Shown here: positions 3,016 through 61,901 of the stretch, in pieces
Layout: the number at the start of each line of letters is the position of its first letter
Numbering within the stretch: position 1 is the first letter of the stretch
Source of the DNA: an uncultured Candidatus Saccharibacteria bacterium
Lineage (GTDB): Bacteria > Patescibacteriota > Minisyncoccia > Phycocordibacterales > CAIRYW01
Direction of reading: 5' to 3'
Length of the DNA: 64,000 bases
Assembly: GCA_964386665.1 (NCBI GenBank)
Contig: CAYLQP010000003.1
Coordinates: 28,731 to 92,730 of the forward strand
Notes under the pieces: model-generated
What the model saw: only the letters and a program-made list of their open reading frames with translations
The model's database searches: none
Told to the model about the DNA's origin: nothing
Position numbers and translations under genes: made by a program

Positions 3016-4169
3016 ACAAACTCCAAACTTCTGTTGGGGGTATCACATTTGAGACCCCGCTTCTACTCGCGTCTGGCTACATCACAGAAACACCAGACTT
3101 CTGCCTACGTTCGAAGCGATTCGGTTGTGCAGGTATGGTGACACGCTCTCTCAAGGAGCATGTGCCACCAGAACGATCACGGGTCCCATCACCACGTTAC
3201 AGCATCTTCGGTCAAACATCGATGCTCAACTGTGAATGGGGCAACGAGCATCCTTGGACCAACTGGAGAGATGGTTGGGCCGATAAAGTCAGATCTTCTG
3301 GCAATCGCCTGATTATTTCCTTCAGTGGAAGAGACATTGCAGGATGTGCAAACTTGATCGGAGCATTCGCTGAACAAGCAGATGCTTTCGAGATTAATGT
3401 GTCCTGCTCTCATTCGGGAGCTTTGCACGGTAATCTCAATCTTGACTTTGATCATCTTCGCGAACTTCTCCGAACCATCAGACCAATCACAAAAATTCCA
3501 ATCTGGCTCAAATTGTCTTACTCACCCATCGTGGTGGAGATGGCAAAAGTTGGCCAGGAGGAAGGCGCGGATGCCATAGTCTGCACCAACACGATTGGAC
3601 CTGGTCTACTCATCGATATTGAAACTGGCCTCCCAAAGGTTGGAATCAAAGGCGGTGCAGGTGGAGTTTCAGGCCCAGCGATTTTCCCAATCGCCATGCG
3701 CTGTGTCTATGAAATCAGTCAGGCAGTTACCATTCCTGTGGTTGGTGTCGGTGGCATATCCAGTGCTGAAGACGTCCTACAGATGATGATGGTTGGTGCC
3801 TCCGCTGTGCAACTTTACACATTGCCAGCACTCAAAGGTCCACGGTCGTTCAAAGCGATCAAAGAAGGTCTCATCAGTTTTCTCGATACTCACACTCAAT
3901 ACGGAAGCTTGCATGACATCGTTGGTCTAAGCCATAATAAGGCTAAGTCCCATCGGTTTATCGCACCTATTCCTACAGTATCAATCGACAAGTGCACAGG
4001 GTGTGGCATTTGTGTTTCAAGTTGTGCTTTCGATGCAATCAAACTCACCAAAGGTAGTGAGGGTCCGAAAGCAGAAATAAAAAGTAATTGCACAAGCTGT
4101 AACGCATGTCTCGGGGTATGCCCACCAGAACTTAATGCAATATCAACAACATTCACCAACCATGGCTAA
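3012..4169 (+). CDS. Dihydroorotate/dihydropyrimidine dehydrogenase family flavoprotein with C-terminal 2x[4Fe-4S] ferredoxin domain (PreA-like)
   Basis: Class-1 DHOD-like TIM-barrel motifs (…GGISSAEDVLQMMMVGASAVQLYT…) followed by two CxxCxxCxxxCP clusters (CTGCGICVSSC, CTSCNACLGVCPP). The ATGA start overlaps the gmk stop, indicating translational coupling. Confidence 0.65.
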   Translation: MNKLQTSVGGITFETPLLLASGYITETPDFCLRSKRFGCAGMVTRSLKEHVPPERSRVPSPRYSIFGQTSMLNCEWGNEHPWTNWRDGWADKVRSSGNRLIISFSGRDIAGCANLIGAFAEQADAFEINVSCSHSGALHGNLNLDFDHLRELLRTIRPITKIPIWLKLSYSPIVVEMAKVGQEEGADAIVCTNTIGPGLLIDIETGLPKVGIKGGAGGVSGPAIFPIAMRCVYEISQAVTIPVVGVGGISSAEDVLQMMMVGASAVQLYTLPALKGPRSFKAIKEGLISFLDTHTQYGSLHDIVGLSHNKAKSHRFIAPIPTVSIDKCTGCGICVSSCAFDAIKLTKGSEGPKAEIKSNCTSCNACLGVCPPELNAISTTFTNHG

Positions 4170-5602: not shown

Positions 5603-6514
5603 CTAATTTGTCACCAAATACACCCCAACCGCCATAATAAGAATTGAAACGAACTTAAGGGCTAAATTTTTCTTTGAGATATCTTCTTTGATAAATCGAG
5701 GAAACAAAAGAGTAAAAATAATACCAAGCAAAAAAACAAAAAGCGGTTGTACTGAATACTCAATCAAAATAATAATCGCAACAGGTGCCAACAAAATCGC
5801 ATAATTGTTTACAATAATCCCAATTGTCTCAAAAATTTGTTCAAGTATATTAACCCCTATTATGGTTTTACTGTTTTCCTTGAGAGCCTTGATGAACTGT
5901 TGTCGATATAGAGTTGATGCAAAACAAATAAGCCCAAACAAAAACATTCCAACCTGATTCCAAAATATAGAGGTCCAAAAAGAAAAATCTTCTACTGCTG
6001 CTTTTTTAAACAAAACATTACCAAGCGCTAGATAAACAGAAGATACAATCATTGTATAAAAAATCTCTTTTCGAAGTTTGAGTTTTCCATTTCTTTTTTT
6101 AAATGATAAAAGCAATGCACCAAAAAGCACAATAACTCCTCCTATAATTTTGTGTTGTTCGATTTGTTCAGACAGCAAAAACAAACCAAAAAAGTACGTA
6201 AATACTGGTGTTAATTGCCAAAACGGCACAACAAGCGATGCGTCTTCTTTCTCAAGTGCATCAAGATATAAAAGCACAGCCATGTTGTACAAGAGACCTG
6301 TTGCTAAAAGTAATGCAACATCATATATAGATACAGTAAATACATCTGGACTGAATACAAAAATAATCAACGCAAGTGGCAATGCAATTACCCCAACAAA
6401 AATCATTAGTGCACCAATACCACCTTTGAAATACTTCGACACCAAATACTTATCAACGTGATTTACAATACTCCAGATAAACGGTGCGATAAGTGCAATG
6501 ATAATCCAAGACAT
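5603..6514 (-). CDS. EamA/DMT-superfamily transporter (10 TM)
   Basis: 303 aa with ten hydrophobic helices arranged as two EamA-like halves. Confidence 0.6.
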   Translation of the reverse strand: MSWIIIALIAPFIWSIVNHVDKYLVSKYFKGGIGALMIFVGVIALPLALIIFVFSPDVFTVSIYDVALLLATGLLYNMAVLLYLDALEKEDASLVVPFWQLTPVFTYFFGLFLLSEQIEQHKIIGGVIVLFGALLLSFKKRNGKLKLRKEIFYTMIVSSVYLALGNVLFKKAAVEDFSFWTSIFWNQVGMFLFGLICFASTLYRQQFIKALKENSKTIIGVNILEQIFETIGIIVNNYAILLAPVAIIILIEYSVQPLFVFLLGIIFTLLFPRFIKEDISKKNLALKFVSILIMAVGVYLVTN

Positions 6515-6523
6515 GGTTTAGTT

Positions 6524-6566
6524 ATTAGCTGTTAGGTTATTAGGCTTTAGGCGCTAGCTTTTAGTT
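6524..6566. repeat. Short intergenic repeat (family member C, inverted relative to D/E)
   Basis: ttaggttattaggctttaggcgctagcttttag is the reverse-complement relative of the 7941..7978 copy and shares ttaggctYtRggcRctagc with copies A and B. Confidence 0.45.
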
Positions 6567-6591
6567 ACAAGTCATTAATTATGAGTTAATC

Positions 6592-7752
6592 TCATTTGAT
6601 TTTCCTAAAGAACATTTTACCTTTTTGGAGAATATCATTTGGTGCAAGAGTAAGTGCGACATCAGTGACTACTTCACCGTTTACTTTTACTCCTTTTTCT
6701 TCAATCAATCGGCGAGCCTCACCCTTGCTTGTAACAGCAGAAGTTTCGATAAGCACTGCAACAATGTTGTAATCACTTGGCGTCACTTCTTCAAGATCAT
6801 CTGGAATCTCCTTTTTTGAAAAGGTTGAAATCCAATACTGCTCCGCCTTTTCTGCATCTTGTTTTGAGTGATACATTTCAACCAAAGTTCCTGCAAGTTT
6901 CATTTTGATATCGCGAGGGTTTACCCCATCAGCCAAACTTTTTTCATAGATTGCGATTTCTTCAAGTGATAGCCGTGTAAGTAACATAAAGTATTTCACT
7001 ACAAATTCATCTTTCAGTGACATAAGCTTACCAAACATATCGTTTGGGGTATCAAACAAGTTTACTGTATTACCCCAACTTGAGCTCATCTTGCGTCCAT
7101 CGAGCCCTTCGATGATTGGACCTGTAAGAATGTCTTGTGGTTCTTGTCCGTATTCTTTTTGAAGATCACGTCCAGCAAGAAGATTGAACTTCTGATCAGT
7201 TCCTCCAAGTTCTACATCTGCTTTTACGGCGACTGAATCATACCCTTGCATCAAAGGATAAAGAAGCTCACGAAGCGACACTCGTTTTCCTTCATCGAGT
7301 CGCTTCTTGATGTTTTCTCTTGAAATAAAGTTAGAGAGTGAAAACACATCAGCATGTCGTCCGATATCTCCGTAATTCAAGGGACCAAGCCACTCTGAGT
7401 TGTATCTGATTTCGGTTTTTGCAATATCAATGATTTTGCCAGCTTGTTCAATATAGGTTTCTAAATTTTTTTTGATTGTGTCACTTTGAAGCATTGGTCG
7501 TTCACTATCCTTATCTGACGTATCTCCAACCACCCCCGTGAAGTCTCCAATAATGAGTACAACTTGATGCCCTGCTTGTTGAAAATCGCGAAGTTTAAGA
7601 AGAGGAATAGATCGACCCAAATGAATATTTGGACTTGTTGGATCAATACCAAGCTTCACTCGAAGTCTCTCTCCGTTTTGAAGTCGTTTTTCTAAGTGCT
7701 CTCGGTCAATGATTTCTTCAACCCCTCGTTCTAATATTGTTTTAATATCCAT
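6592..7752 (-). CDS. tyrS: Tyrosyl-tRNA synthetase
   Basis: HIGH-region GIDPTSPNIHLGR, KMSKS variant KMSSSWGN, GGTDQ, and a C-terminal S4-like domain (RRLIEEKGVKVNG). The probable true start is MDIKTILERG; the track start at 7788 is a TTG. Confidence 0.85.
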   Translation of the reverse strand: MDIKTILERGVEEIIDREHLEKRLQNGERLRVKLGIDPTSPNIHLGRSIPLLKLRDFQQAGHQVVLIIGDFTGVVGDTSDKDSERPMLQSDTIKKNLETYIEQAGKIIDIAKTEIRYNSEWLGPLNYGDIGRHADVFSLSNFISRENIKKRLDEGKRVSLRELLYPLMQGYDSVAVKADVELGGTDQKFNLLAGRDLQKEYGQEPQDILTGPIIEGLDGRKMSSSWGNTVNLFDTPNDMFGKLMSLKDEFVVKYFMLLTRLSLEEIAIYEKSLADGVNPRDIKMKLAGTLVEMYHSKQDAEKAEQYWISTFSKKEIPDDLEEVTPSDYNIVAVLIETSAVTSKGEARRLIEEKGVKVNGEVVTDVALTLAPNDILQKGKMFFRKIK

Positions 7753-7812
7753 ACAGACAATAGTACAATATTTTTGAGATAGGTGCAAAAAAGGTAAAAA
7801 AGTGATTAGAAA

Positions 7813-7872
7813 GTTAGGCTCTGGGCACTAGCCAGTTAAATAAACAAATAACAAGCACTAAATAACAAACAA
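7813..7872. repeat. Short intergenic repeat (family member A)
   Basis: About 60 bp, ~90% identical to 11986..12044: ttaggctctgggcactagccagtt…aataaacaaataacaagcactaaataacaaacaa. Confidence 0.6.
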
Positions 7873-7906
7873 AATTCAATGACCAATGACTAATAATGAA
7901 AAACAA

Positions 7907-7935
7907 TTCCCCACACACCAGGGGTGTGTGGGGAA
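7907..7935. repeat. Perfect GC-rich palindrome / hairpin
   Basis: ttCCCCACACACC agg GGTGTGTGGGGaa: a 13-bp stem with a 3-nt loop. Confidence 0.5.
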
Positions 7936-7940
7936 CCAAA

Positions 7941-7978
7941 ACCTAAAGCCTAAAAGCTAATGCCTAATAGCTAACCTC
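7941..7978. repeat. Short intergenic repeat (family member D)
   Basis: cctaaagcctaaaagctaatgcctaatagctaacct is related to 8507..8545 and is the inverse of 6524..6566. Confidence 0.45.
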
Positions 7979-8049
7979 GCTTCCTTGTAAAAGAATGTAT
8001 TTTAGGTAATCTAAAGGGTAGCTGCTAAACAACCCAGCTCTTTATTATT

Positions 8050-8466
8050 ATGGTAAACGACTTTCAAACATGGTGCTTAGGCCGACATATGGCACAAGCA
8101 ACCGCAATGTTGCTCACCGATTCACCAAACGAACCTCATCTCGTGCTCCTGCATGGTCAAGGCAATCCAATTCTTCCGTGGGGTGACCTCCCTGCATCGA
8201 TTCCCTACGGGTCTGTCACCATCAAACCGGATGTGAGATGGGCAATTGGGAACAGTCTGGTCAGCTTCAAAACCTTTTGGACAGAGGCAGTAGCACGACA
8301 CCATCGAGACGGTGCAGCAATACACGGCACAAAAATATCGGTTGAATTAATCGGAACGTCAATTGGGAACAGTGCAATATTAACTGCCCCTAAAACCACT
8401 GACAGTAATGGCCGCTGGACGCTCAGTGGTCATGTCGTGATCATATTAAGATCAATTGGTTACTAA
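8050..8466 (+). CDS. Hypothetical protein in a GC-rich block of foreign composition (138 aa); a non-coding alternative is not excluded
   Basis: About 50% GC against a ~35% background. ORFs are open on both strands. There is an internal 14-bp direct repeat (caattgggaacagt at ~8248 and ~8358, giving AIGNS/SIGNS at protein level). A + strand terminator lies immediately 3'. Confidence 0.35.
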   Translation: MVNDFQTWCLGRHMAQATAMLLTDSPNEPHLVLLHGQGNPILPWGDLPASIPYGSVTIKPDVRWAIGNSLVSFKTFWTEAVARHHRDGAAIHGTKISVELIGTSIGNSAILTAPKTTDSNGRWTLSGHVVIILRSIGY

Positions 8467-8490
8467 CTCGGTTCGCCGAGTTTTTTTTAT
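8465..8490 (+). terminator. Rho-independent terminator
   Basis: ctcgg-ttcg-ccgag hairpin followed by T8. Confidence 0.6.
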
Positions 8491-8506
8491 TTCCCAAAAA
8501 CTATTG

Positions 8507-8545
8507 CCTAACAACCCAAGGCCTAAAAAGTTAGTAGCTAACCTA
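8507..8545. repeat. Short intergenic repeat (family member E)
   Basis: cctaacaacccaaggcctaaaaagttagtagctaacct shares gcctaaaag.ta and tagctaacct with copy D. Confidence 0.4.
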
Positions 8546-9619
8546 CAGCCCCTCCTCTCTCAACTCCTCCACGAGCTTTCGCGATTGTTTTGAAAGTTTG
8601 TTTGGAGTTTTGATATGTATATGGATCAAGATATCTCCACGACCGTTTCCATGAGGCACTCCTTTTCCTCTTACCTTAAGCACATCGAGATGTTTGGTTC
8701 CTTCGGGAATACTCACCACTATATTGCCATCAAGTGTTTCAAGTCCTATCTCTGCCCCAAGGAGCGCGTCCGTTAGTTTGATTTCGAGAATGGTTTCAAG
8801 ATTGAAACCTGCCTTTTTAAACACCTTACTTGGTTTGACATAAATCTTGATAAATAAATCTCCATTTTGTCCTCCACGTACCGCTTCACCTCGTCCAGTT
8901 ACTCGAAGCATTTCTCCATGTTCAATCCCTGAAGGAATCTGTACTTCAATATCTTCACTTTGTTTGTGGACTCCTGCACCATGACAGACACCACACTTAT
9001 TTTTTGGAATTGCACCCACACCAAAACAACTATCACACACACGCTCACTTGCCACTTGTCCGAAGATAGATCGTTTCATTTCTCGAATGACACCCTGACC
9101 ATTACAATGTGTACACGTATTCATTTGTGAGCCAGCTTCTGCCCCGTTTCCATTACAATTCTTGCAACTTGAAACTTTGTTGAGGTGGATTTTTTTTGCG
9201 ACACCAAACACTGCGTCTTTGAAATCAAGTTCAACGTCAACTTGGATATCATTCCCCTTTTTTGTTTTTTGTCTGCGACCTCCGCCTCCGCCGAAAATAT
9301 CCCCAAAAATATCCCCAAGATCTCCCATATCAAACTGAAACCCACCACCTTGTCCTCCAAATCCACCAAAGTCAAACCCTTCGAAACCAGCTCCTCCACT
9401 CGATCCTGCTCCTGTGTCTCCAAACCGATCATACTGAGCTCGTTTTTGCGTATCAGAAAGCACAGTATATGCTTCACTTACTTCCTTGAAGCGTTTGTCA
9501 TCTCCACCCTTCTTGTCTGGATGGTGTTCGTGCGCAAGTTTTCTAAACGCTTTTTTGATTTCGTCTTGGGAAGCGTTCTTAGAAACACCTAGTATATTAT
9601 AGTAGTCTTTTTTGTTCAT
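8543..9619 (-). CDS. dnaJ: Chaperone DnaJ
   Basis: J-domain (YYNILGV…HPDK), a G/F-rich linker, and four CxxCxGxG zinc-finger repeats. Confidence 0.9.
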
Positions 9620-9678
9620 CTGTTATTTTAGTCAAAAATTAAAAGTTAAAAATCAAAATTGAATGTAAAAAGTCAAAA

Positions 9679-10047
9679 TTATAACTTTTTTAAACTCATT
9701 ACGCTTTTTCCGAGCATATTGGAAATTTGCTCCGCTTCATCAATAATCAATTCAAGATCTTTGATAGCAACTAGTTTTGAATCTTTTAAGAGATTAAGCC
9801 AATAAAGCGTTTCATTTGAGCTTTTAAGTGATATCTCATAAAACTTCTTAAATTCTAATCTCGAGCTAGAGGCTTTTGCTTCCACAATGTTCGCACCGAT
9901 TGAGGTGGCAGATCTAAGTAATTGATCACCAATGACCCAACCGGCACGTTTTTGTGGTAAAGAATCCAAAAGTCTAATGATACTTAAACTAAACTGATAA
10001 GTTCGTTGTTTGAGATCGGTTTTGAACTTTGAGTTTAAATTTTGCAT
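9679..10047 (-). CDS. Four-helix-bundle protein (23S rRNA intervening-sequence-type family)
   Basis: …GWVIGDQLLRSATSIGANIVEA… is typical of the TIGR02436-like four-helix-bundle proteins. Here it sits between dnaK and dnaJ. Confidence 0.55.
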   Translation of the reverse strand: MQNLNSKFKTDLKQRTYQFSLSIIRLLDSLPQKRAGWVIGDQLLRSATSIGANIVEAKASSSRLEFKKFYEISLKSSNETLYWLNLLKDSKLVAIKDLELIIDEAEQISNMLGKSVMSLKKL

Positions 10048-10073
10048 TTTGATTTTTGAATTCTTACTTTTAC

Positions 10074-11963
10074 CTATTTCTTCTCTTCCTCCTTAAACTC
10101 AGCTTCTTTTGGTTCTTCTTGCTTTGGAGTGTCAGCTGATGATTCAGGATTTGCTTGTTGAGATTGTTTTGCCATCTCTTCACCAATCTTTGACATCTCA
10201 GTTGAAAGTGCTTCTGTTGCTTTTTTCATTGTCTCAATATCATTTCCTTCTTTTGCTGTTTTGAGATCTGCAATCTTTGCTTCAACAGATGCTTTCAAAT
10301 CTGCACTTATCTTGTCTCCATTGTCCTTAAGAGACTTCTCAGCAGTGTAAAGTACTTGATCAGCGATATTTTTCGCTTCGATTTCAAGTTTTTTCTTCTC
10401 ATCATCTGCTGCATGCATCTCAGCATCTTTTTGCATCTTTTCGATATCTTCTTTTGAAAGTCCAGAACTTGCTTCGATTCGGATTGAGTTTTCTTTGTTC
10501 GTTGCCTTATCCTTCGCCTTCACAGAAAGAATTCCGTTTGCATCAATATCAAAGGTTACTTCCACTTGAGGTACTCCTCGAGGTGCAGGTGGGATTCCAT
10601 CAAGAATAAATCTTCCCAAACTCTTGTTGTCAGAGGCCATTGCTCGTTCTCCTTGAACGATATGAATTTCAGTTGAAGTTTGGTTATCTGTTGCGGTTGA
10701 GAATACTTGAGACTTTGAAGTTGGAATAGTTGTGTTCTTTTCAATCAATTTTGTTGCTACTCCTCCCATTGTTTCGATTCCAAGAGAAAGCGGGATTACA
10801 TCAAGAAGAAGTACATCTTTCACATCTCCTCCAAGAATTCCTCCTTGAATAGCAGCCCCAAGAGCTACTACTTCATCTGGGTTTACTCCCATATTTGGCT
10901 CTTTGTTGAAGAAGTCTTTTACCGCTTTTTGGATTGCTGGCATTCGAGTTTGTCCTCCAACCAGGATCACCTCATTGATATCTCCCACCTTAAATGGTGA
11001 TGCTTCAACCGCTCGTTTAGTAATAGACATTGCTCGGTCGATAAACTCAGAAGTCAACTCTTCGAGTTTTGCTCGAGTAAGTGTGATGAGTAAGTGACGA
11101 GGTCCTGAACTATCTGATGTAATGAACGGAATATTTACTTCTGTTTGAACTGCTGTCGAAAGCTCGATCTTGGCTTTTTCTGCCGCTTCGTCTAATCGTT
11201 GCAACGCAAGAGCATCTCCTCGAAGATCAATACCTGATTCTTTTTTGAACTCATCGGCAAGGAAGTTAATGATTTTTTGATCTAAGTCCTTTCCTCCGAG
11301 GTGTGCGTCTCCATCAGTTGATTTTACTTCTACAACATCATCCCCTACTTCAAGTACTGAGATATCAAATGTTCCTCCTCCGAAGTCGAACACTACGATC
11401 TTTTCATCTTTTTTCTTGTTGAATCCGTATGCAAGAGCAGCAGCAGTTGGTTCGTTGATGATTCGCATTACTTCAAGTCCTGCAATCTTTCCTGCATCTT
11501 TGGTTGCTTGTCGTTGTGCATCGTTGAAGTACGCAGGTACCGTAATTACTGCTTGTGTGACAGGTTCTCCTACTCGTGCTTCTGCGTCAGCTTTGAGCTT
11601 TTGGAGAATCATCGCAGAAATCTCTTCTGGACGATATTCTTTGTTCCCCATTTTTACTTCGATTCCTCCGTTTGAAGACTTTGTTATTTCGTATGGAACT
11701 GAAGCTTTGTCTTTTTGAACCGGAGCCTCATCGAAGTTATGTCCGATAAATCGCTTGATTTGATAAATTGTGTTTTTTGGGTTTGTTACTCCTTGTCGTT
11801 TTGCAAGAAGCCCTGCAAGACGTTCCCCTGTTTTACTTTCGGCAACGATCGAAGGAGTCGTTCGAGCTCCTTCTGCGTTTTCGAGAATCTTTGGACTACC
11901 TGCCTCCATTACCGCAATAGCAGAGTTAGTAGTTCCAAGGTCAATACCAATTATTTTTGACAT
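10074..11963 (-). CDS. dnaK: Chaperone DnaK (Hsp70)
   Basis: [18 protein letters not shown]…, full Hsp70 signatures (DLGGGTFD) and an acidic EEKK tail. Confidence 0.95.
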
Positions 11964-11985
11964 AAATTTTTTAGTTAGTTAGATG

Positions 11986-12044
11986 CTAGGCTTTGGGCAC
12001 TAGCTAGTTTAATAAACAAATTACAAGCACCAAATAACAAACAA
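11986..12044. repeat. Short intergenic repeat (family member B)
   Basis: ctaggctttgggcactagctagttt aataaacaaattacaagcaccaaataacaaacaa, about 90% identical to 7813..7872. It ends 22 bp upstream of the dnaK ATG. Confidence 0.6.
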
Positions 12045-12133
12045 TCCTCAAATCTTAATTTTGCAAATTCCAATCGTAGATTAATTATTGGAGTTTGAAT
12101 TTTATTTGTGATTTGGAATTTGGTTCTTGGTGA

Positions 12134-12433
12134 TTACGCTAGCGTTGGCGCACGTGGTTTAGATCCGTTGATATCAATAAGACTACTTACATAAGGAGAT
12201 TGAATCGCAAGATTAAAAGTTGAAATAAGCAAGTCATCAAATACAGAAGTACTTTGACATATAGGCAAAGCGATTGTTTCCGAAAGGTCTTCAATCTTGC
12301 CAAGAGGAATTACCTTAATAATTTCTGCCTTTACCCCATCAAGTTCATTTGAAACAGCAAAAAAGACACGGAAAATAAAGCCGTTTTTCTCGATTACTTT
12401 TTCAACTATTTGTTTTCGGGTAGTTGTAAGCAT
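12134..12433 (-). CDS. Hypothetical protein (99 aa) between grpE and dnaK
   Basis: ORF only. It occupies the position where hrcA is expected in Gram-positive-like chaperone operons but does not resemble hrcA. Confidence 0.3.
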   Translation of the reverse strand: MLTTTRKQIVEKVIEKNGFIFRVFFAVSNELDGVKAEIIKVIPLGKIEDLSETIALPICQSTSVFDDLLISTFNLAIQSPYVSSLIDINGSKPRAPTLA

Positions 12434-12485
12434 TTGTTTAATTATACCAAAACAATATCAAAACTAAAACCCCAACACAAGACCT

Positions 12486-13079
12486 TTATTTCTTCTCAAA
12501 CACCTTCACTCCTGCTGGGCGGATTTCTTTACCATTTAGTACATAGCCTTTTTGCATTACTTCTGCAACCAAACCTACTTTTGATTCATCGTCAGTTTCA
12601 ACCACTCCAACTGGATTATGTTTCATTACATCGAGCTTTTGTCCTACGGGATTTTCTTGTTTAACTCCTGCGTTTTCGAGAGTTCTAAGTATTTGATTGT
12701 AAATGTATTCAATACCGCTTCGCCATGCACTATCAACTTTTTCCCAGGCTTCTTTGTTCGCCATTGCCATATCAAAAGCATCGAGTGTTGGTAACAACTC
12801 CACAATGAAGTTTTCATTTGCATACTTAATTAGTTCAAGTCGAGACTTATCCGCTTCTTTTTGAGCGTTCACATAGTCAGCTTTTGTACGTTGCCAACCG
12901 AGAAGGTTCTCAGCACTTTCTTTTTGCAACTCTTTTATCTTTGTCTTGAGTTTTTTGATTTCAGCCCTCGCGTCTTCTTCTGAATATTCCATATCTAAAT
13001 CTGCATCTAGATCGGTGTCTGAATTTGTATTTGGCTCGATTGTTACATCGTCTTGTTCTTCTTGTTGTTGATTATCCAT
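12486..13079 (-). CDS. grpE: Nucleotide exchange factor GrpE
   Basis: Acidic N-terminus, a coiled-coil tail (…LLGWQRTKADYVNAQKEADK…), and C-terminal FDMAMA/ENPVG motifs. Confidence 0.85.
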   Translation of the reverse strand: MDNQQQEEQDDVTIEPNTNSDTDLDADLDMEYSEEDARAEIKKLKTKIKELQKESAENLLGWQRTKADYVNAQKEADKSRLELIKYANENFIVELLPTLDAFDMAMANKEAWEKVDSAWRSGIEYIYNQILRTLENAGVKQENPVGQKLDVMKHNPVGVVETDDESKVGLVAEVMQKGYVLNGKEIRPAGVKVFEKK

Positions 13080-17392: not shown

Positions 17393-17488
17393 TTACAATT
17401 TATGTACTTTTTATTATGTGTAAATTATAACTAATCTCATATCACAAGTCAAATAAACCTCTTTTTAAAGTTCTTGGGCTAGAGGCTT

Positions 17489-18832: not shown

Positions 18833-18882
18833 ATTTGTGTCATTATACCTAAAAAAAAATTTTAATTCTACTGTGGAAAGAT

Positions 18883-20055: not shown

Positions 20056-20213
20056 AGTAGTTTAATTATAAACTAACCTGTCGAATAACCAAATCACAAA
20101 AAACAAAAACTAAATAAGTTCAAGGATCAATGCTTTACACTTCAATGTTGAGTATTGAGAAATCAAGCGCTGTTTGTAGTTTGTTGTTTGGTTACCAAAT
20201 ACTTAGTGATAAG

Positions 20214-42183: not shown

Positions 42184-42456
42184 ATGTCAACCAAAAAAGC
42201 CGGTGGAGTAGCCAAAAACCTGACCGATTCAAAACCAAAATTCCTTGGAGTTAAACTCTATGAAGGGCAAACTGCAAAAACAGGTTCTATTATTGTACGT
42301 CAAAGAGGAACACGAGTACTTCCAGGAACAAACGTAGCAGTAGGAAAAGACCACACTCTCTTTGCTCTCAAGGACGGTGTTGTAGAATTTGGAGAAAAAC
42401 GAAAGAAAAACTTCGACGGAACTTCTACAGTACGAAAGATTGTCCACGTAAAATAA
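42184..42456 (+). CDS. rpmA: 50S ribosomal protein L27
   Basis: …[13 protein letters not shown]…[13 protein letters not shown]…DHTLFAL…. Confidence 0.9.
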
Positions 42457-42508
42457 CCCATCAAACAAAAAACACTCGCTTCAAGCGAGTGTTTTTTGTT
42501 TGATGGGT
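42456..42508. terminator. Bidirectional terminator shared by rpmA (+) and rplI (-)
   Basis: About 20-bp palindrome acccatcaaacaaaaaacactcgc-ttca-agcgagtgttttttgtttgatgggt. Confidence 0.6.
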
Positions 42509-42957
42509 TATTTCTTTGCGGGAGTGATGATAAGTTTAACCTCTGCTTTATGAGTATGTGCTTTTACAACAATAGTGTATTCCCCTACTTCTTTAATTGG
42601 TTTTTCAAGTTCAATAAAATCTGGACTGATTGAAGAATGGATCTTTGAAGACAAGATTTCTGCAATTTGTTCTTTATGAAGACCTGCAAAAAGATGCCCT
42701 TTGTCATTTGCTTTTTCTTCAATTTCAACCACCTTTTCGTTGATTTCATTTATACTCTTTGCAAGCAAGTCTTCCTGAACTTTCATATCATCTCGAGCAA
42801 GTGCTTTCAGTGCCTCAACTTTTTCTAACGCATCTTTTGTTGCACTTTTTGCTTTTCCTTGTGGAATCAAAAAGTTAAATGCAAAACCGTCTGAAACGTC
42901 TTTTACATCAAATTTTTTTCCCACTTTCGCCACATCTTTAAGAAGAATTACTTTCAT
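42508..42957 (-). CDS. rplI: 50S ribosomal protein L9
   Basis: MKVILLKDVAKVGKKFDVKDVSDGFAFNFLIP…. Confidence 0.85.
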   Translation of the reverse strand: MKVILLKDVAKVGKKFDVKDVSDGFAFNFLIPQGKAKSATKDALEKVEALKALARDDMKVQEDLLAKSINEINEKVVEIEEKANDKGHLFAGLHKEQIAEILSSKIHSSISPDFIELEKPIKEVGEYTIVVKAHTHKAEVKLIITPAKK

Positions 42958-43044: not shown

Positions 43045-44259
43045 TTATTTTAAGACCTGAACCGCTTTTTCTAGTTGTACATCTTTGCCACTTTTTTGTT
43101 CTTCAAGAGTCGGTTTCACTACGAATTTTGGAGTAATTCCTACCTTTGAAATATAGGCACCCTTTGGGAGAAGCCATCGTGCTACTGTTAGTTTAAGTGA
43201 CGTATCTTTTGTTACCGAAATCAATTCTTGAACAGATCCTTTTCCAAAACTAGTCTCTCCTACAAGTGTAGCAATACCGTAATCATTTAATGCTCCGGCA
43301 AGAATTTCTGATGCAGAAGCCGAACCACCATTTATCAAGATAACCATTTTTGCATTAGATTTGAATGTATTGTATCCAAGGCTTCGATGTACTTGAGCTT
43401 CTTTCTTATTACCATAATCTTCAGTTACAATTACTTTTCCTTGTGGCAAGAAATAACTCGCCATTTCAACTGCTGATTCAAGGTATCCTCCTGGATTATT
43501 TCGAAGATCAAGAATGAGTTTTTTGTAATTTCCTTGATTGAACTTTTGCATAGCATCTTTAAACAACGAAACTGAAAGAGCATTAAATTCAAAAAGCTTT
43601 ATTTTGTAGATTCCTCCTTCAAGGACTTCTGTTTCAAGAGTTGGCACAAGAATCTTGTCTCGAATAATTGAAATTTCAATTGGTTCTGGTTCTCCTTTGC
43701 GAATCAATGAGAGAGTTACTTTTGTTCCTTTTTTCCCTTTGATCCGTTTAACGGCTTCAGAAACTGTCATTGAAACTGATTCTGTACCATCAATTTTGTA
43801 GATAATATCTCCTGCTTTTACACCCGCTTTATCTGCTGGAGAATCTTTGATAGGTGAAATTGCCGTCAATACATCATCACGAATACCAACCACTACTCCA
43901 ATCCCCTCCAAACTTCCAGAAAGTTCTTCATCAAATAGATTCTTTTCTTCTGCAGGAAGATATTCAGAATATGGATCACCAAGTGCAGCAACCAACCCTT
44001 TGATTGCGCCGTCAATCTTGTCACTATCCGGTGTACTTGAAGCAGTGCCAGAATATACATATCTCTTATCCATCAAATCCCATACTTTCCAGAAATCACT
44101 TAGATCAAGTTTCTGTGAGACTTCAAGTTTTTTCGAATTCAAAAGTCTATCTTCTGCTGTTGCAAATTCAGACTTAACAAGCAATCCTGCAAAGAAAGAA
44201 ATACCAACAAGAAAACAGAGTGCAATAATAATGTGTATCTTTTTGTGTAATGTAATCAT
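43045..44259 (-). CDS. ctpA: Carboxyl-terminal processing protease (S41, PDZ)
   Basis: PDZ domain (…GIGVVVG…) and S41 catalytic region (…LINGGSASASEILAGAL…). Confidence 0.8.
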   Translation of the reverse strand: MITLHKKIHIIIALCFLVGISFFAGLLVKSEFATAEDRLLNSKKLEVSQKLDLSDFWKVWDLMDKRYVYSGTASSTPDSDKIDGAIKGLVAALGDPYSEYLPAEEKNLFDEELSGSLEGIGVVVGIRDDVLTAISPIKDSPADKAGVKAGDIIYKIDGTESVSMTVSEAVKRIKGKKGTKVTLSLIRKGEPEPIEISIIRDKILVPTLETEVLEGGIYKIKLFEFNALSVSLFKDAMQKFNQGNYKKLILDLRNNPGGYLESAVEMASYFLPQGKVIVTEDYGNKKEAQVHRSLGYNTFKSNAKMVILINGGSASASEILAGALNDYGIATLVGETSFGKGSVQELISVTKDTSLKLTVARWLLPKGAYISKVGITPKFVVKPTLEEQKSGKDVQLEKAVQVLK

Positions 44260-44292
44260 ATATGTTTTATTATATCACCCTATAAAAAAATA

Positions 44293-56853: not shown

Positions 56854-56895
56854 AAAATATGTACCTTCAATTATATAATGAAAAGAGAATAAATA

Positions 56896-56950
56896 AAAAT
56901 GCCGTGTTTTTTGTTTGACCAATAGTCAAACAAAAAACACGGCATTTTTA
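56896..56950. terminator. Bidirectional terminator (22-bp perfect palindrome) downstream of gyrA
   Basis: aatgccgtgttttttgtttgac-caata-gtcaaacaaaaaacacggcatt flanked by A and T runs. Confidence 0.6.
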
Positions 56951-56985
56951 TTTTAAAATTTTAAAACAGAATCAAAACCTACTTT

Positions 56986-61797: not shown

Positions 61798-61827
61798 AAA
61801 AGAGTTTTTAGATTGTAGTTAAAACAA

Positions 61828-61862
61828 AAAAGCCGCGCCCTCCGGGCGCGGCTTTTTTGTTT
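61828..61862. terminator. Bidirectional terminator (rpsA/pth)
   Basis: aaaaaa-gccgcgccc-tcc-gggcgcggc-tttttt. Confidence 0.65.
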
Positions 61863-61901
61863 TATTCTCTTACATTCAACAATCTACATTCCAGATTCAA
61901 T

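Follow-up and report, generated by a model that had tools for sequence, protein, structure and literature searches.

Organisation of the locus

Five short intergenic elements, A to E, are analysed here. They lie in the spacers around the tyrS, dnaJ and dnaK genes of a low-GC Patescibacteria of the Parcubacteria type, in a stretch of 64,000 nucleotides (contig CAYLQP010000003.1, positions 28,731 to 92,730), which is called the window in what follows and has a GC content of 38%. A first-pass annotation had grouped them into one family of short repeats, similar to repetitive extragenic palindromic (REP) sequences or to miniature inverted-repeat transposable elements (MITEs), and all five are present where it placed them or within a few bases. 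The gene string that they punctuate is grpE-hyp99-dnaK-IVP-dnaJ / ORF138 / tyrS-EamA, where hyp99 encodes a 99-aa protein, IVP stands for a 23S_rRNA_IVP-family gene and ORF138 is a GC-rich open reading frame (ORF). The gene names tyrS, dnaJ, dnaK and grpE of the first-pass annotation are borne out by Pfam, which also identifies the alaS gene mentioned below. The features of this region, and two distant spacers with the same periodicity, are listed here; the lag-7 z is the autocorrelation score at a lag of 7 nt, and the fold z compares predicted RNA folding to that of shuffled sequences.

5603-6514, minus strand: EamA transporter gene (Pfam)
6515-6566, minus strand: element C, which occupies the spacer between tyrS and EamA up to 3 nt from the EamA ATG
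6592-7752, minus strand: tyrS (Pfam)
7760-7788, minus strand: candidate tyrS core promoter of leaderless type, TTGCAC-17-TACTAT, ending 7 nt before the ATG
7815-7879, minus strand: element A, 65 nt that partially duplicate the spacer upstream of dnaK (B)
7904-7938, minus strand: terminator-like, perfect GC-rich hairpin (16 pairs) and T-run, between D and A, with the tail TTTTTCATTA
7941-7978, plus strand: element D, forward relative to ORF138 and about 72 nt upstream of its ATG
8050-8490, plus strand: ORF138 (138 aa, 8050-8466) and its terminator (8465-8490), convergent with dnaJ
8507-8545, plus strand: element E, a looser CTAA tract overlapping the dnaJ stop codon
8543-9619, minus strand: dnaJ (Pfam)
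9629-9680, no strand assigned: heptad-periodic tract of NTNAAAA units downstream of the 23S_rRNA_IVP gene (lag-7 z of +3.5 to +3.6)
9679-10047, minus strand: 23S_rRNA_IVP-family gene (Pfam)
10025-10076, no strand assigned: heptad-periodic tract upstream of the 23S_rRNA_IVP gene, inverted partner of 9629-9680
10074-11963, minus strand: dnaK (Pfam)
11964-12133, minus strand: hyp99-dnaK spacer, a conserved 170-nt island of which element B (11987-12051) is the 3' part
12134-12433, minus strand: hyp99, a 99-aa protein without family
12486-13079, minus strand: grpE (Pfam)
20056-20213, minus strand: heptad-periodic spacer downstream of alaS (lag-7 z +5.3, fold z -2.1)
61798-61901, no strand assigned: heptad-periodic spacer between rpsA-like and pth genes (lag-7 z +4.4), with ACATTCA-type units beside a bidirectional terminator

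TyrS of the window is at most 66% identical to that of any GTDB species representative, the nearest being metagenome-assembled genomes of Parcubacteria/Patescibacteria, and no DNA similar to the elements is found in the 80 loci obtained from this GTDB TyrS scan. Closer relatives were gathered through searches with TyrS and with the 99-aa protein. The closest is locus L083, whose TyrS is 93% identical to that of the window, as compared to 82% for L084 and 62% for L017. In addition, two Logan contigs cover the region, and the queried segments are 100% identical to the window.

A period of seven nucleotides unifies the elements

The feature that unifies the elements, overlooked in the first-pass annotation, is a 7-nt period. 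Its unit is CTA[A/G]NNN in C, D and E, as well as at the 3' ends of A and B. All five spacers between 6.4 and 12.2 kb have a raised autocorrelation at lag 7 (z of +2.0 to +4.9), and lags 5, 6, 8 and 9 are flat in the heptad spacers. Taken individually, C has a lag-7 z of +4.7 to +4.8 and the hyp99-dnaK spacer, which contains B, of +4.9 to +5.5. Elsewhere in the window, the mean lag-7 z is 0.59 and two of the 38 spacers exceed 2.5, those at 20056-20213 and 61798-61901; seven of the 43 spacers of the window are periodic.

On the EamA strand, C reads CTAAaag CTAGcgc CTAAagc CTAAtaac CTAAcag CTAAtaa CTAAacc ATG. D, the strongest lag-7 hot spot of the window, reads CTAAagc CTAAaag CTAAtgc CTAAtag CTAAcct. 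E appears, on the dnaJ strand, as a TTAG tract directly past the dnaJ stop, and it has GGGTTGTTAG in common with the tract that follows the dnaJ stop in L084. Successive CTA[AG] motifs are spaced by 7, 7, 7, 8, 7 and 7 nt in C, by 7, 7, 7 and 7 nt in D, by 15 and 15 nt in E, by 14 and 8 nt in the tail of A and by 4, 14, 7, 4 and 4 nt in the tail of B. All these tracts are intergenic, at 3 nt (C), 9 nt (B tail), 45 nt (A tail) and 72 nt (D) from an ATG, and E has no downstream gene. The units are not identical or nearly so, since only CTAA or CTAG is kept and the other three positions vary; a search of the window with find_repeats showed no perfect tandem array. Clusters of five to six [GC]CTA[AG] motifs per 50 nt are found in the window only at C and D, and those of at least three are confined to four of the elements (B, C, D and E) and to 1691-1787. 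The [GC]CTAA pentamer is under-represented in the window as a whole, with 52 occurrences versus about 138 expected from base composition.

The five elements had been described as related to one another. This is true of A and B, which are one duplicate pair (see below), but C, D and E are CTAA-heptamer tracts and not copies of A or B. Pairwise Smith-Waterman scores are modest and above chance for C-D in inverted orientation (31, p~3e-4), C-B (29, p~7e-4) and D-E (24, p~3e-3), whereas the A-D, A-E, B-D and B-E alignments are at chance level when compared to random intergenic 50-mers. The sequence modules that had been quoted for C, D and E are real: CCTAAAGCCTAA is found at 7942 (plus strand) and 6540 (minus strand), and CTAAAAGCTA at 7950 (plus strand) and 6555 (minus strand). 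The 10-mer TAGCTAACCT closes both D and E, at 7968 and 8535, and has no other occurrence in the window. As to orientation, C and D are inverted around tyrS, as first proposed, but around the GC-rich ORF the orientation of D and E is direct, not inverted.

C belongs both to the heptamer tracts and to the A/B group, which it joins via a 19-nt core. This core, GCTAGYGCCYARAGCCTAR, is located at 6540-6558 in C, 7814-7832 in A and 11986-12004 in B. All three copies are on the minus strand and face the downstream genes, EamA, tyrS and dnaK, and their distance to the start codon varies (about 25, 62 and 23 nt, respectively). Three copies are found in the window against 0.02 expected, with no extra match even when three mismatches are allowed; as the pattern was derived from these very copies, the count shows the absence of others and is not an independent enrichment. 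In related loci, no copy of the core is found apart from the orthologous B of L084. A small hairpin (UAG-N-GC / 5-nt loop / GC-CUA) can be folded from the core; it is predicted to have 5-7 bp with a bulge in B and to be weaker in A and C. The palindrome GCTAG/CTAGC of the core is intact in B only, and the CTAA tracts alone are not palindromic.

Some of the periodic spacers contain inverted arms. In the predicted minus-strand RNA of 7753-7985, D and the A core form a stem that encloses the terminator hairpin, UUAGGCUUUAGG being paired with CCCAGAGCCUAA (fold z -2.6). In the spacer downstream of alaS, arms of CAAAC-type and GTTTG-type heptads form a long imperfect hairpin, which ends at a TATAAT leaderless promoter whose box lies 9 nt before a GTG start, a layout like that of the hyp99-dnaK spacer. 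The two tracts around the 23S_rRNA_IVP gene are 52-nt inverted arms, 71% complementary, and similar flanks are present in L090 and L095. A long-range pairing of D' with C across tyrS and a 5'-3' pairing of operon ends were also considered and dropped, the tract orientations being inconsistent across units.

The period extends to relatives. Their dnaK upstream spacers cannot be aligned to B, and yet the lag-7 z is +3.6 to +4.2 in L083, L089, L090 and L092, with units that differ from one relative to another (ATTCGTA in L083, ATTACTN in L090 and L092, CAATTNN in L089); it is weaker in L088 and L095 (+1.7 to +2.0). Among the low-GC loci fetched, 26 of 417 spacers, delimited by crude ORF calling, have a z above 3 at lag 7, versus 3, 3, 3 and 9 at lags 5, 6, 8 and 9. 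For the high-GC loci, delimited in the same way, the count at lag 7 is 4 of 275. These results in relatives and in low-GC loci therefore indicate that the five elements are local cases of a tendency shared by the clade, as opposed to a repeat family of their own.

Element A is a local copy of element B

The identity of about 90% over about 58 bp that had been reported for A and B is confirmed, as BLAST aligns 58 nt at 91% identity (E 1e-15). A repeat search extends the match to 65 nt, 7815-7879 against 11987-12051, with 88% identity and no indels, and it is the only long direct repeat in the 64-kb window. The Smith-Waterman score of the pair is 91, versus a maximum of 31 in the null set of random intergenic 50-mers. 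As first noticed, each precedes the start of a minus-strand gene; 23 nt separate B from the dnaK ATG, and 62 nt separate A from the tyrS ATG. The 5' part of A is made of the heptads TTGTTTG TTATTTA GTGCTTG TTATTTG and its 3' part of the 19-nt core and a CTAA tail. For A and B together, the 5' part can be read as TTGTTTG TTATTTG GTGCTTG TAATTTG, with TTNTTTG as the unit, and the 3' third as CTAGtgc CC(A/G)Aagc CTA(G/A)....

A is absent from L083, L084, L085 and L086. The B elements of the window and of L084 differ at four sites, and A has the window state at three of these and matches neither at the fourth; A was therefore copied from the window's own B, and these alignments place the copy in the window lineage alone. 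A is without the 5' partner strand of the long stem of B, and it has substitutions at the candidate promoter hexamers. Most likely, A is a decaying by-product of local recombination and not a second regulated promoter. No terminal inverted repeats or target-site duplications were noted around A and B, and no inverted arms are located at their ends among the 25 longest pairs listed.

The conserved spacer upstream of dnaK

B is part of a spacer that is conserved over its whole length. In L084, this spacer also has 170 nt and is 90% identical, with zero indels, and 94% identical over B. Because L084 has B at the same place, B is native to its position and not inserted. The surroundings are far more divergent: 4-fold degenerate sites of grpE, hyp99, dnaK, dnaJ and tyrS are only 39-57% identical between the window and L084, that is, saturated, and the hyp99 protein is 51% identical. 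The identities range over 85-95% for the spacer, 47-65% for hyp99 and 68-88% for dnaK. The closest relative, L083, has 49 nt in place of the 170-nt spacer. The spacer that holds B is either strongly constrained or was recently exchanged between the lineages of the window and of L084.

Within the spacer, the 3' strand of a predicted long stem is accompanied by the 19-nt core and the tail CTAGcat CTAACTAACTAA AAAATTT ATG. Its RNA is predicted to fold better than shuffled sequences, with a fold z of -2.5 in the window and of -3.9 in L084. When the 17 substitutions between the two spacers are placed on the consensus structure, 14 are unpaired, and the other three, which are transitions (C-to-U or A-to-G), keep a wobble pair only on the dnaK-sense strand. 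This structure is predicted from the same two sequences, between which no compensatory double change occurs. A covariance model made from the two spacers recovers A (40 bits, E 2e-4) and, in seven relatives other than L084, nothing homologous ahead of dnaK. It also gives a weak match (E 0.055) in L017 at 10216-10283, where a 9-bp hairpin (TGCTAGTTT ctaa AAACTAGCA) is followed by ACAACTAACTAAAAACTATTT and the ATG of an unrelated 199-aa gene; this layout, GCTAG-N10-CTAGC, then AACTAACTAAAAA, then ATG, resembles the 3' end of B. Rfam reports only a tRNA-Leu in the window at gathering score and nothing in 6400-12300 at E<=5. The elements are not fragments of a known tRNA or rRNA, a reading which the first-pass annotation had named as one that would overturn its own.

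A 33-codon, TTG-initiated frame also runs through B on the minus strand (11975-12076), with its stop 11 nt before the dnaK ATG. It is kept in L084 with three synonymous and five non-synonymous changes. It is unconvincing as a coding sequence, and an upstream ORF coupled to dnaK is conceivable. A read-through of hyp99 into the spacer was rejected, as L084 has an in-frame stop at codon 7.

The dnaJ-tyrS spacer and the mobile-element question

The first-pass annotation had asked for a comparison of the dnaJ-tyrS spacer between relatives and had viewed the GC-rich ORF in it as a possible insertion. The spacer is 85 nt long in L083, 86 nt in L086, 200 nt in L084 and about 790 nt in the window and in L085, and ORF138 is absent from it in L083, L084 and L086, in agreement with an insertion. 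ORF138 has a GC content of 47-52%, versus 38% for the window, and has no Pfam, NCBIfam or PHROG match; among 5.8 billion proteins it has a single homologue, P0144, with 80% identity. The comparison between relatives supports ORF138, an orphan gene, as a real and lineage-specific insertion with respect to L083, L084 and L086. In L085, the same spacer contains a different and unrelated ORF of 182 aa, which is acidic (3254-3802, minus strand). The dnaJ-tyrS spacer is in this respect a hot spot of small opposite-strand orphan genes, with one in the window, one in L085 and none in L083, L084 and L086. L083 is without A, D, E, ORF138 and the IVP gene.

L084 and L086 have a tyrS 97% identical and yet differ by about 115 nt in this spacer. 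The extra segment of L084 has inverted TTAG/CTAA arms and a closed stem (fold z -2.5); the indel is not a clean one, with no target duplication and with rearranged flanks. The TAGCTAACCT 10-mer in which D and E end may be a target duplication; alternatively, its two copies may be pieces of a single pre-existing array. Signals that resemble a mobile element are limited to this indel and to the TAGCTAACCT 10-mer bracketing ORF138.

The proposal that the elements are of REP or MITE type is not supported. The window contains two copies of A/B and three cores in 64 kb, no terminal inverted repeat or target-site duplication was noted, and B is native to its position. About 1.4 Mb of related loci contain no A/B copy except the orthologous B of L084, and the two-box motif TTATTTNGTGCTTGTN{18,28}CTAGTGCCC has no hit in either JGI metagenomes or IMG/VR. 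Searches of the window, the relatives, JGI metagenomes and IMG/VR revealed no copies at unrelated sites, beyond the gene string and the orthologous spacers, and no related autonomous element, as would be expected for MITEs. According to Pfam, none of the ten genes around the elements encodes a transposase, such as the RAYT (Y1) transposase associated with REP sequences.

Promoters and translation starts

In the window, 19 of 46 genes (about 40%) have at least five of the six positions of TATAAT ending 4-12 nt before the start, compared to 5% of random positions, and a Shine-Dalgarno core at -18 to -4 is found for 1 of 46 genes, compared to 9% of random positions. The organism thus appears to be largely leaderless and essentially Shine-Dalgarno-free. 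Examples of the leaderless type in the window are located at 12434-12450, 17393-17410, 18833-18850 and 43045-44270.

A lies upstream of a conserved, sigma-70-type promoter candidate of tyrS: the arrangement TTGCAN-17-TAnnnT before the tyrS ATG is kept in L083, L084, L085 and L086, at 7 nt from the ATG (15 nt in L085). dnaK and EamA have no TATAAT-like box near their start and have instead a small hairpin and a G-poor CTAA tract, with two G in the 35 nt before the start for EamA and three for dnaK, the background being 21%. EamA leaders are also CTAA-rich in L083, L084, L085 and L088, and in L084 EamA follows different genes. Of the three readings initially proposed for the repeats, a cassette forming a promoter or 5'-untranslated region is partly supported and is the best one for B and C, which run up to the starts of dnaK and EamA, the EamA leaders of relatives being CTAA-rich as well.

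A sigma-70 promoter scan yields no more sites than shuffled sequences and none in A or B. By eye, no -35/-10 pair with the canonical A2/T6 is conserved in all core copies, and sigma-54 and sigma-32 promoters were rejected in A and B after reading both strands, spacing and key bases being a misfit. Likewise, the controlling inverted repeat of chaperone expression (CIRCE), TTAGCACTC-N9-GAGTGCTAA, has 0 matches in the window with up to three mismatches and was rejected as an operator in the dnaK spacer.

A model for the heptamer arrays and its rivals

We propose that tandem heptamer arrays with degenerate units, lying in the spacers of one gene string, make up the five elements, together with one local duplication, and that the arrays arise by slippage or recombination and serve as leaders and insulators; taken as a whole, we hold this to be somewhat better than an even bet. 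Its structural part, i.e., heptamer arrays plus the 65-nt duplication of a conserved dnaK spacer, is well supported. Slippage or unequal recombination of the 7-nt units would create and renew the arrays, and point mutations would then degrade them; this turnover and decay would explain why the arrays are conserved in position and yet fluid in sequence between relatives. As for function, the sense G-poor CUAA tract before EamA and dnaK would have no stable structure and stops in all three frames; it may act, for genes that are not leaderless, as an open landing or re-initiation zone independent of a Shine-Dalgarno sequence, the small hairpin just upstream keeping it exposed or stabilising the 5' end. 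Where arrays face each other in inverted orientation, as do D and the A core, the two arms within the hyp99-dnaK spacer and within the alaS spacer, and the tracts flanking the IVP gene, they could form long imperfect hairpins insulating transcription units, with a REP-like role in termination or in the protection of mRNA ends; the predicted fold z of such hairpins ranges from -2.1 to -3.9. Such leader and insulator functions, which we infer, are consistent with what is described for TAACTGA repeats (PMC4679880) and for Nostoc heptamers (see below).

Several points weigh against this proposal. Of the five tracts, only C and the B tail adjoin a start codon; the A tail and D are upstream of predicted -35 boxes and E has no downstream gene on the same strand, so that a single translational role cannot cover them all. 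Only the CTAA tetramer is kept in the units, slippage is deduced, and three strain assemblies are identical, with no length polymorphism. The counts of periodic spacers in the fetched loci come from the crude ORF calling mentioned above; promoter and transcription start positions are consensus guesses, and the promoter scan does no better than shuffles. Moreover, the closest relative, L083, is without the element altogether. Finally, 90% conservation across 170 nt, predicted loops included, fits poorly with a simple open leader and suggests instead a more specific function, as an RNA or in protein binding, or a recent lateral exchange. Leader and insulator roles leave D, E and the extreme conservation of the spacer unexplained, and an RNA or operator function of B is a serious rival.

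The first form of this rival is a structured cis-acting RNA: the 170-nt spacer would be a thermosensor, an RNase III site or a standby scaffold of the dnaK message, A a truncated copy and the heptads incidental. We give it perhaps one chance in a handful. It would account for the sharp island of conservation amid saturated 4-fold sites, for the fold z of both spacers, for substitutions that avoid stems or keep a G-U pair only on the dnaK-sense strand and for a dnaK initiation region predicted to be unpaired. However, it relies on two sequences without any double compensatory change, from which the structure itself was drawn; Rfam is silent even at E<=5, the covariance model is blank upstream of dnaK in the seven further relatives, L083 is without the spacer element in spite of its very similar TyrS, and an identity uniform up to the loops could as easily result from recent recombination. 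Alternatively, the core or the 65-nt unit could be a shared operator or promoter cassette, bound by a regulator or an alternative sigma factor, which would unite dnaK, tyrS and EamA in a stress regulon. This seems rather improbable to us. Three gene-oriented copies do precede three consecutive transcription units, one of them a heat-shock operon, B is highly conserved, a similar cassette precedes an unrelated gene in L017, and no CIRCE competes for the role. But the distance from core to start is not constant, A is upstream of a complete sigma-70-type tyrS promoter, the GCTAG/CTAGC palindrome survives in B only, no -35/-10 pair is found in all copies and the promoter scan is empty at the elements; the L017 match is weak, and L083 has no such element.

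A mobile or REP-like origin, in which TTAG/CTAA-armed segments are non-autonomous elements settling in spacers and ORF138 arrived with or into one of them, is a little less probable still. It draws on the extra segment of L084, with its inverted arms and closed stem, missing from L086, on a 15-nt identity between C and an arm of this segment, on the TAGCTAACCT ends of D and E, unique in the window and bracketing ORF138, and on the wide range of dnaJ-tyrS spacer lengths among relatives. The indel is, however, unclean, no further copies exist in the 64 kb, the relatives or the metagenome and virus collections, and matches between tracts are short, as expected for arrays of the same heptamer. Above all, tracts hold orthologous positions in several relatives (following the dnaJ stop, ahead of the tyrS promoter and ahead of EamA), which is why array turnover in situ fits better than transposition. 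A mere chance likeness of low-complexity, AT-rich intergenic DNA has hardly any credit. The tracts are compositionally simple, and four of the pairwise alignments are at chance; for A/B and for the periodicity, this explanation is refuted by the alignment scores and by a lag-7 z of up to +5.5, C-D, C-B and D-E also score above chance, and a pentamer that the window avoids is crowded at these very sites. One further and broader possibility, as doubtful as the mobile one, is that the heptad arrays form a general system of the clade, read by a periodic RNA-binding factor of S1 or cold-shock type: G-poor CUAA arrays in sense orientation would recruit ribosomes to internal starts, inverted arrays would insulate, and the 170-nt spacer, as a specialised and strongly constrained case, would control the chaperone operon, perhaps with hyp99.

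The elements bear on how bacterial ribosomes find internal starts without a Shine-Dalgarno sequence and on the little-studied expression signals of Patescibacteria. If the heptamer arrays are functional, CTAA leaders and inverted-array hairpins would be concrete elements, testable with reporters, and would offer a reason for the over-representation of heptamers in bacteria. The one item that would repay further work is the conserved dnaK spacer: its conservation far exceeds that of synonymous sites, although L083 does not have it, and as a possible new cis-regulatory RNA of the chaperone operon it is tractable.

Neighbouring genes and other features

hyp99 is always located between grpE and dnaK (window, L083, L084 and L088-L096), and only 22 homologues are found among 5.8 billion proteins, all in this clade. 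Its N-terminus, MLTTxRKQIVEK, is invariant. Disorder is predicted for its conserved C-terminus, SPYSSLIFVNGSKPRAPT, which resembles a hydrophobic-basic peptide of the kind bound by Hsp70. As a possible regulator, hyp99 has no Pfam, PDB or NCBIfam match, and its AlphaFold model (predicted local distance difference test, 65) is too poor for a fold search.

The 23S_rRNA_IVP gene is present between dnaK and dnaJ in the window (9620-10076), L090 (12288-12730) and L095 (8275-8716) and absent in L083, L084, L088, L089 and L092. Its flanks are the inverted heptad tracts described above, of GTCAAAA type. The gene and its flanks could be a patchy, possibly mobile cassette or form an RNase III-type stem. 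CtsR operators have a spacing of 10 nt; the GTCAAA-type heptads around the IVP gene are spaced by 7 or 14 nt and were rejected as such operators. In two dnaK-dnaJ spacers without the IVP gene (L083, 2419-2496; L084, 4036-4110), there is a conserved GC-rich hairpin, GGCGCGAAAACG...CGTTTTCGCGCC, which the window does not have.

Two other segments of the window, 42451-42513 and 56891-56953, are perfect palindromes of 29-31 bp that look like bidirectional terminators and have the string GTGTTTTTTGTTTGA in common; their A/T-tract composition may explain this sharing.

Comparison with known systems

Like REP sequences, the elements are extragenic, and the inverted arrays and the core of the window can form hairpins between transcription units, which makes a REP-like role in termination or in mRNA-end protection plausible. 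However, there is no high-copy conserved palindrome here, and the tracts of the window are conserved in position and not dispersed. The likeness to MITEs lies in the size (40-150 nt) and in the L084 segment with inverted arms, present or absent when compared to L086. It stops there, as A and B have no defined terminal inverted repeats or target-site duplications, form no multi-copy family and are without matches in large collections. In annotation, these repeats should therefore be labelled neither REP nor MITE. With the CIRCE/HrcA system, the position upstream of dnaK and a partial palindrome are in common, but no operator matches in the window, and no hrcA gene was called between grpE and the ribosomal S9 gene which it follows.

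The closest resemblance is to heptameric repeats. The TAACTGA direct repeats of marine Beggiatoaceae, cyanobacteria and some Bacteroidetes (MacGregor, 2015; PMC4679880) are located directly upstream of start codons, in intergenic regions poor in Shine-Dalgarno sequences, and have stops in all frames; they have no predicted RNA structure alone, and a translational role has been proposed, their function being unproven. Similarly, the elements of the window are intergenic tandem units of 7 nt without Shine-Dalgarno sequence; C and the tail of B correspond to the description more fully, being forward and near a start. The elements differ in that their units are degenerate and have another core sequence, in that only two of the five tracts abut a start and in their Patescibacteria host; the seven periodic spacers among the 43 of the window also contrast with the 169 TAACTGA sets of a Beggiatoa genome (PMC4679880).

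Heptameric simple sequence repeats are more generally over-represented in bacteria, and their length and sequence vary between the same genes of close relatives, which is attributed to polymerase slippage; examples are the heterogeneous (GGGANTN)n repeats of Xanthomonas (Rehm et al., 2015; PMC4692102). In Nostoc, a preprint on recF/recO reports that heptamers affect transcription or translation when they are near promoters or start codons (10.1101/2022.06.06.494920). The arrays of the window resemble these Xanthomonas repeats and the short tandemly repeated repetitive sequences of Nostoc and Calothrix, since they are intergenic heptamers with a partly conserved unit, sometimes inverted so as to give stem-loops, for which slippage is proposed. 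Those units are G-rich and prone to form G-quadruplexes, whereas the arrays of the window are G-poor and should be unstructured. A head-to-tail period of 7 nt is found in the motif spacing of C and D and in the lag-7 z of the spacers (+2.0 to +5.5), and spacer length and tract content vary between relatives (200 nt in L084, 86 nt in L086), the strain-level assemblies being identical. The literature searched holds no description of heptameric repeats in this Patescibacteria lineage.

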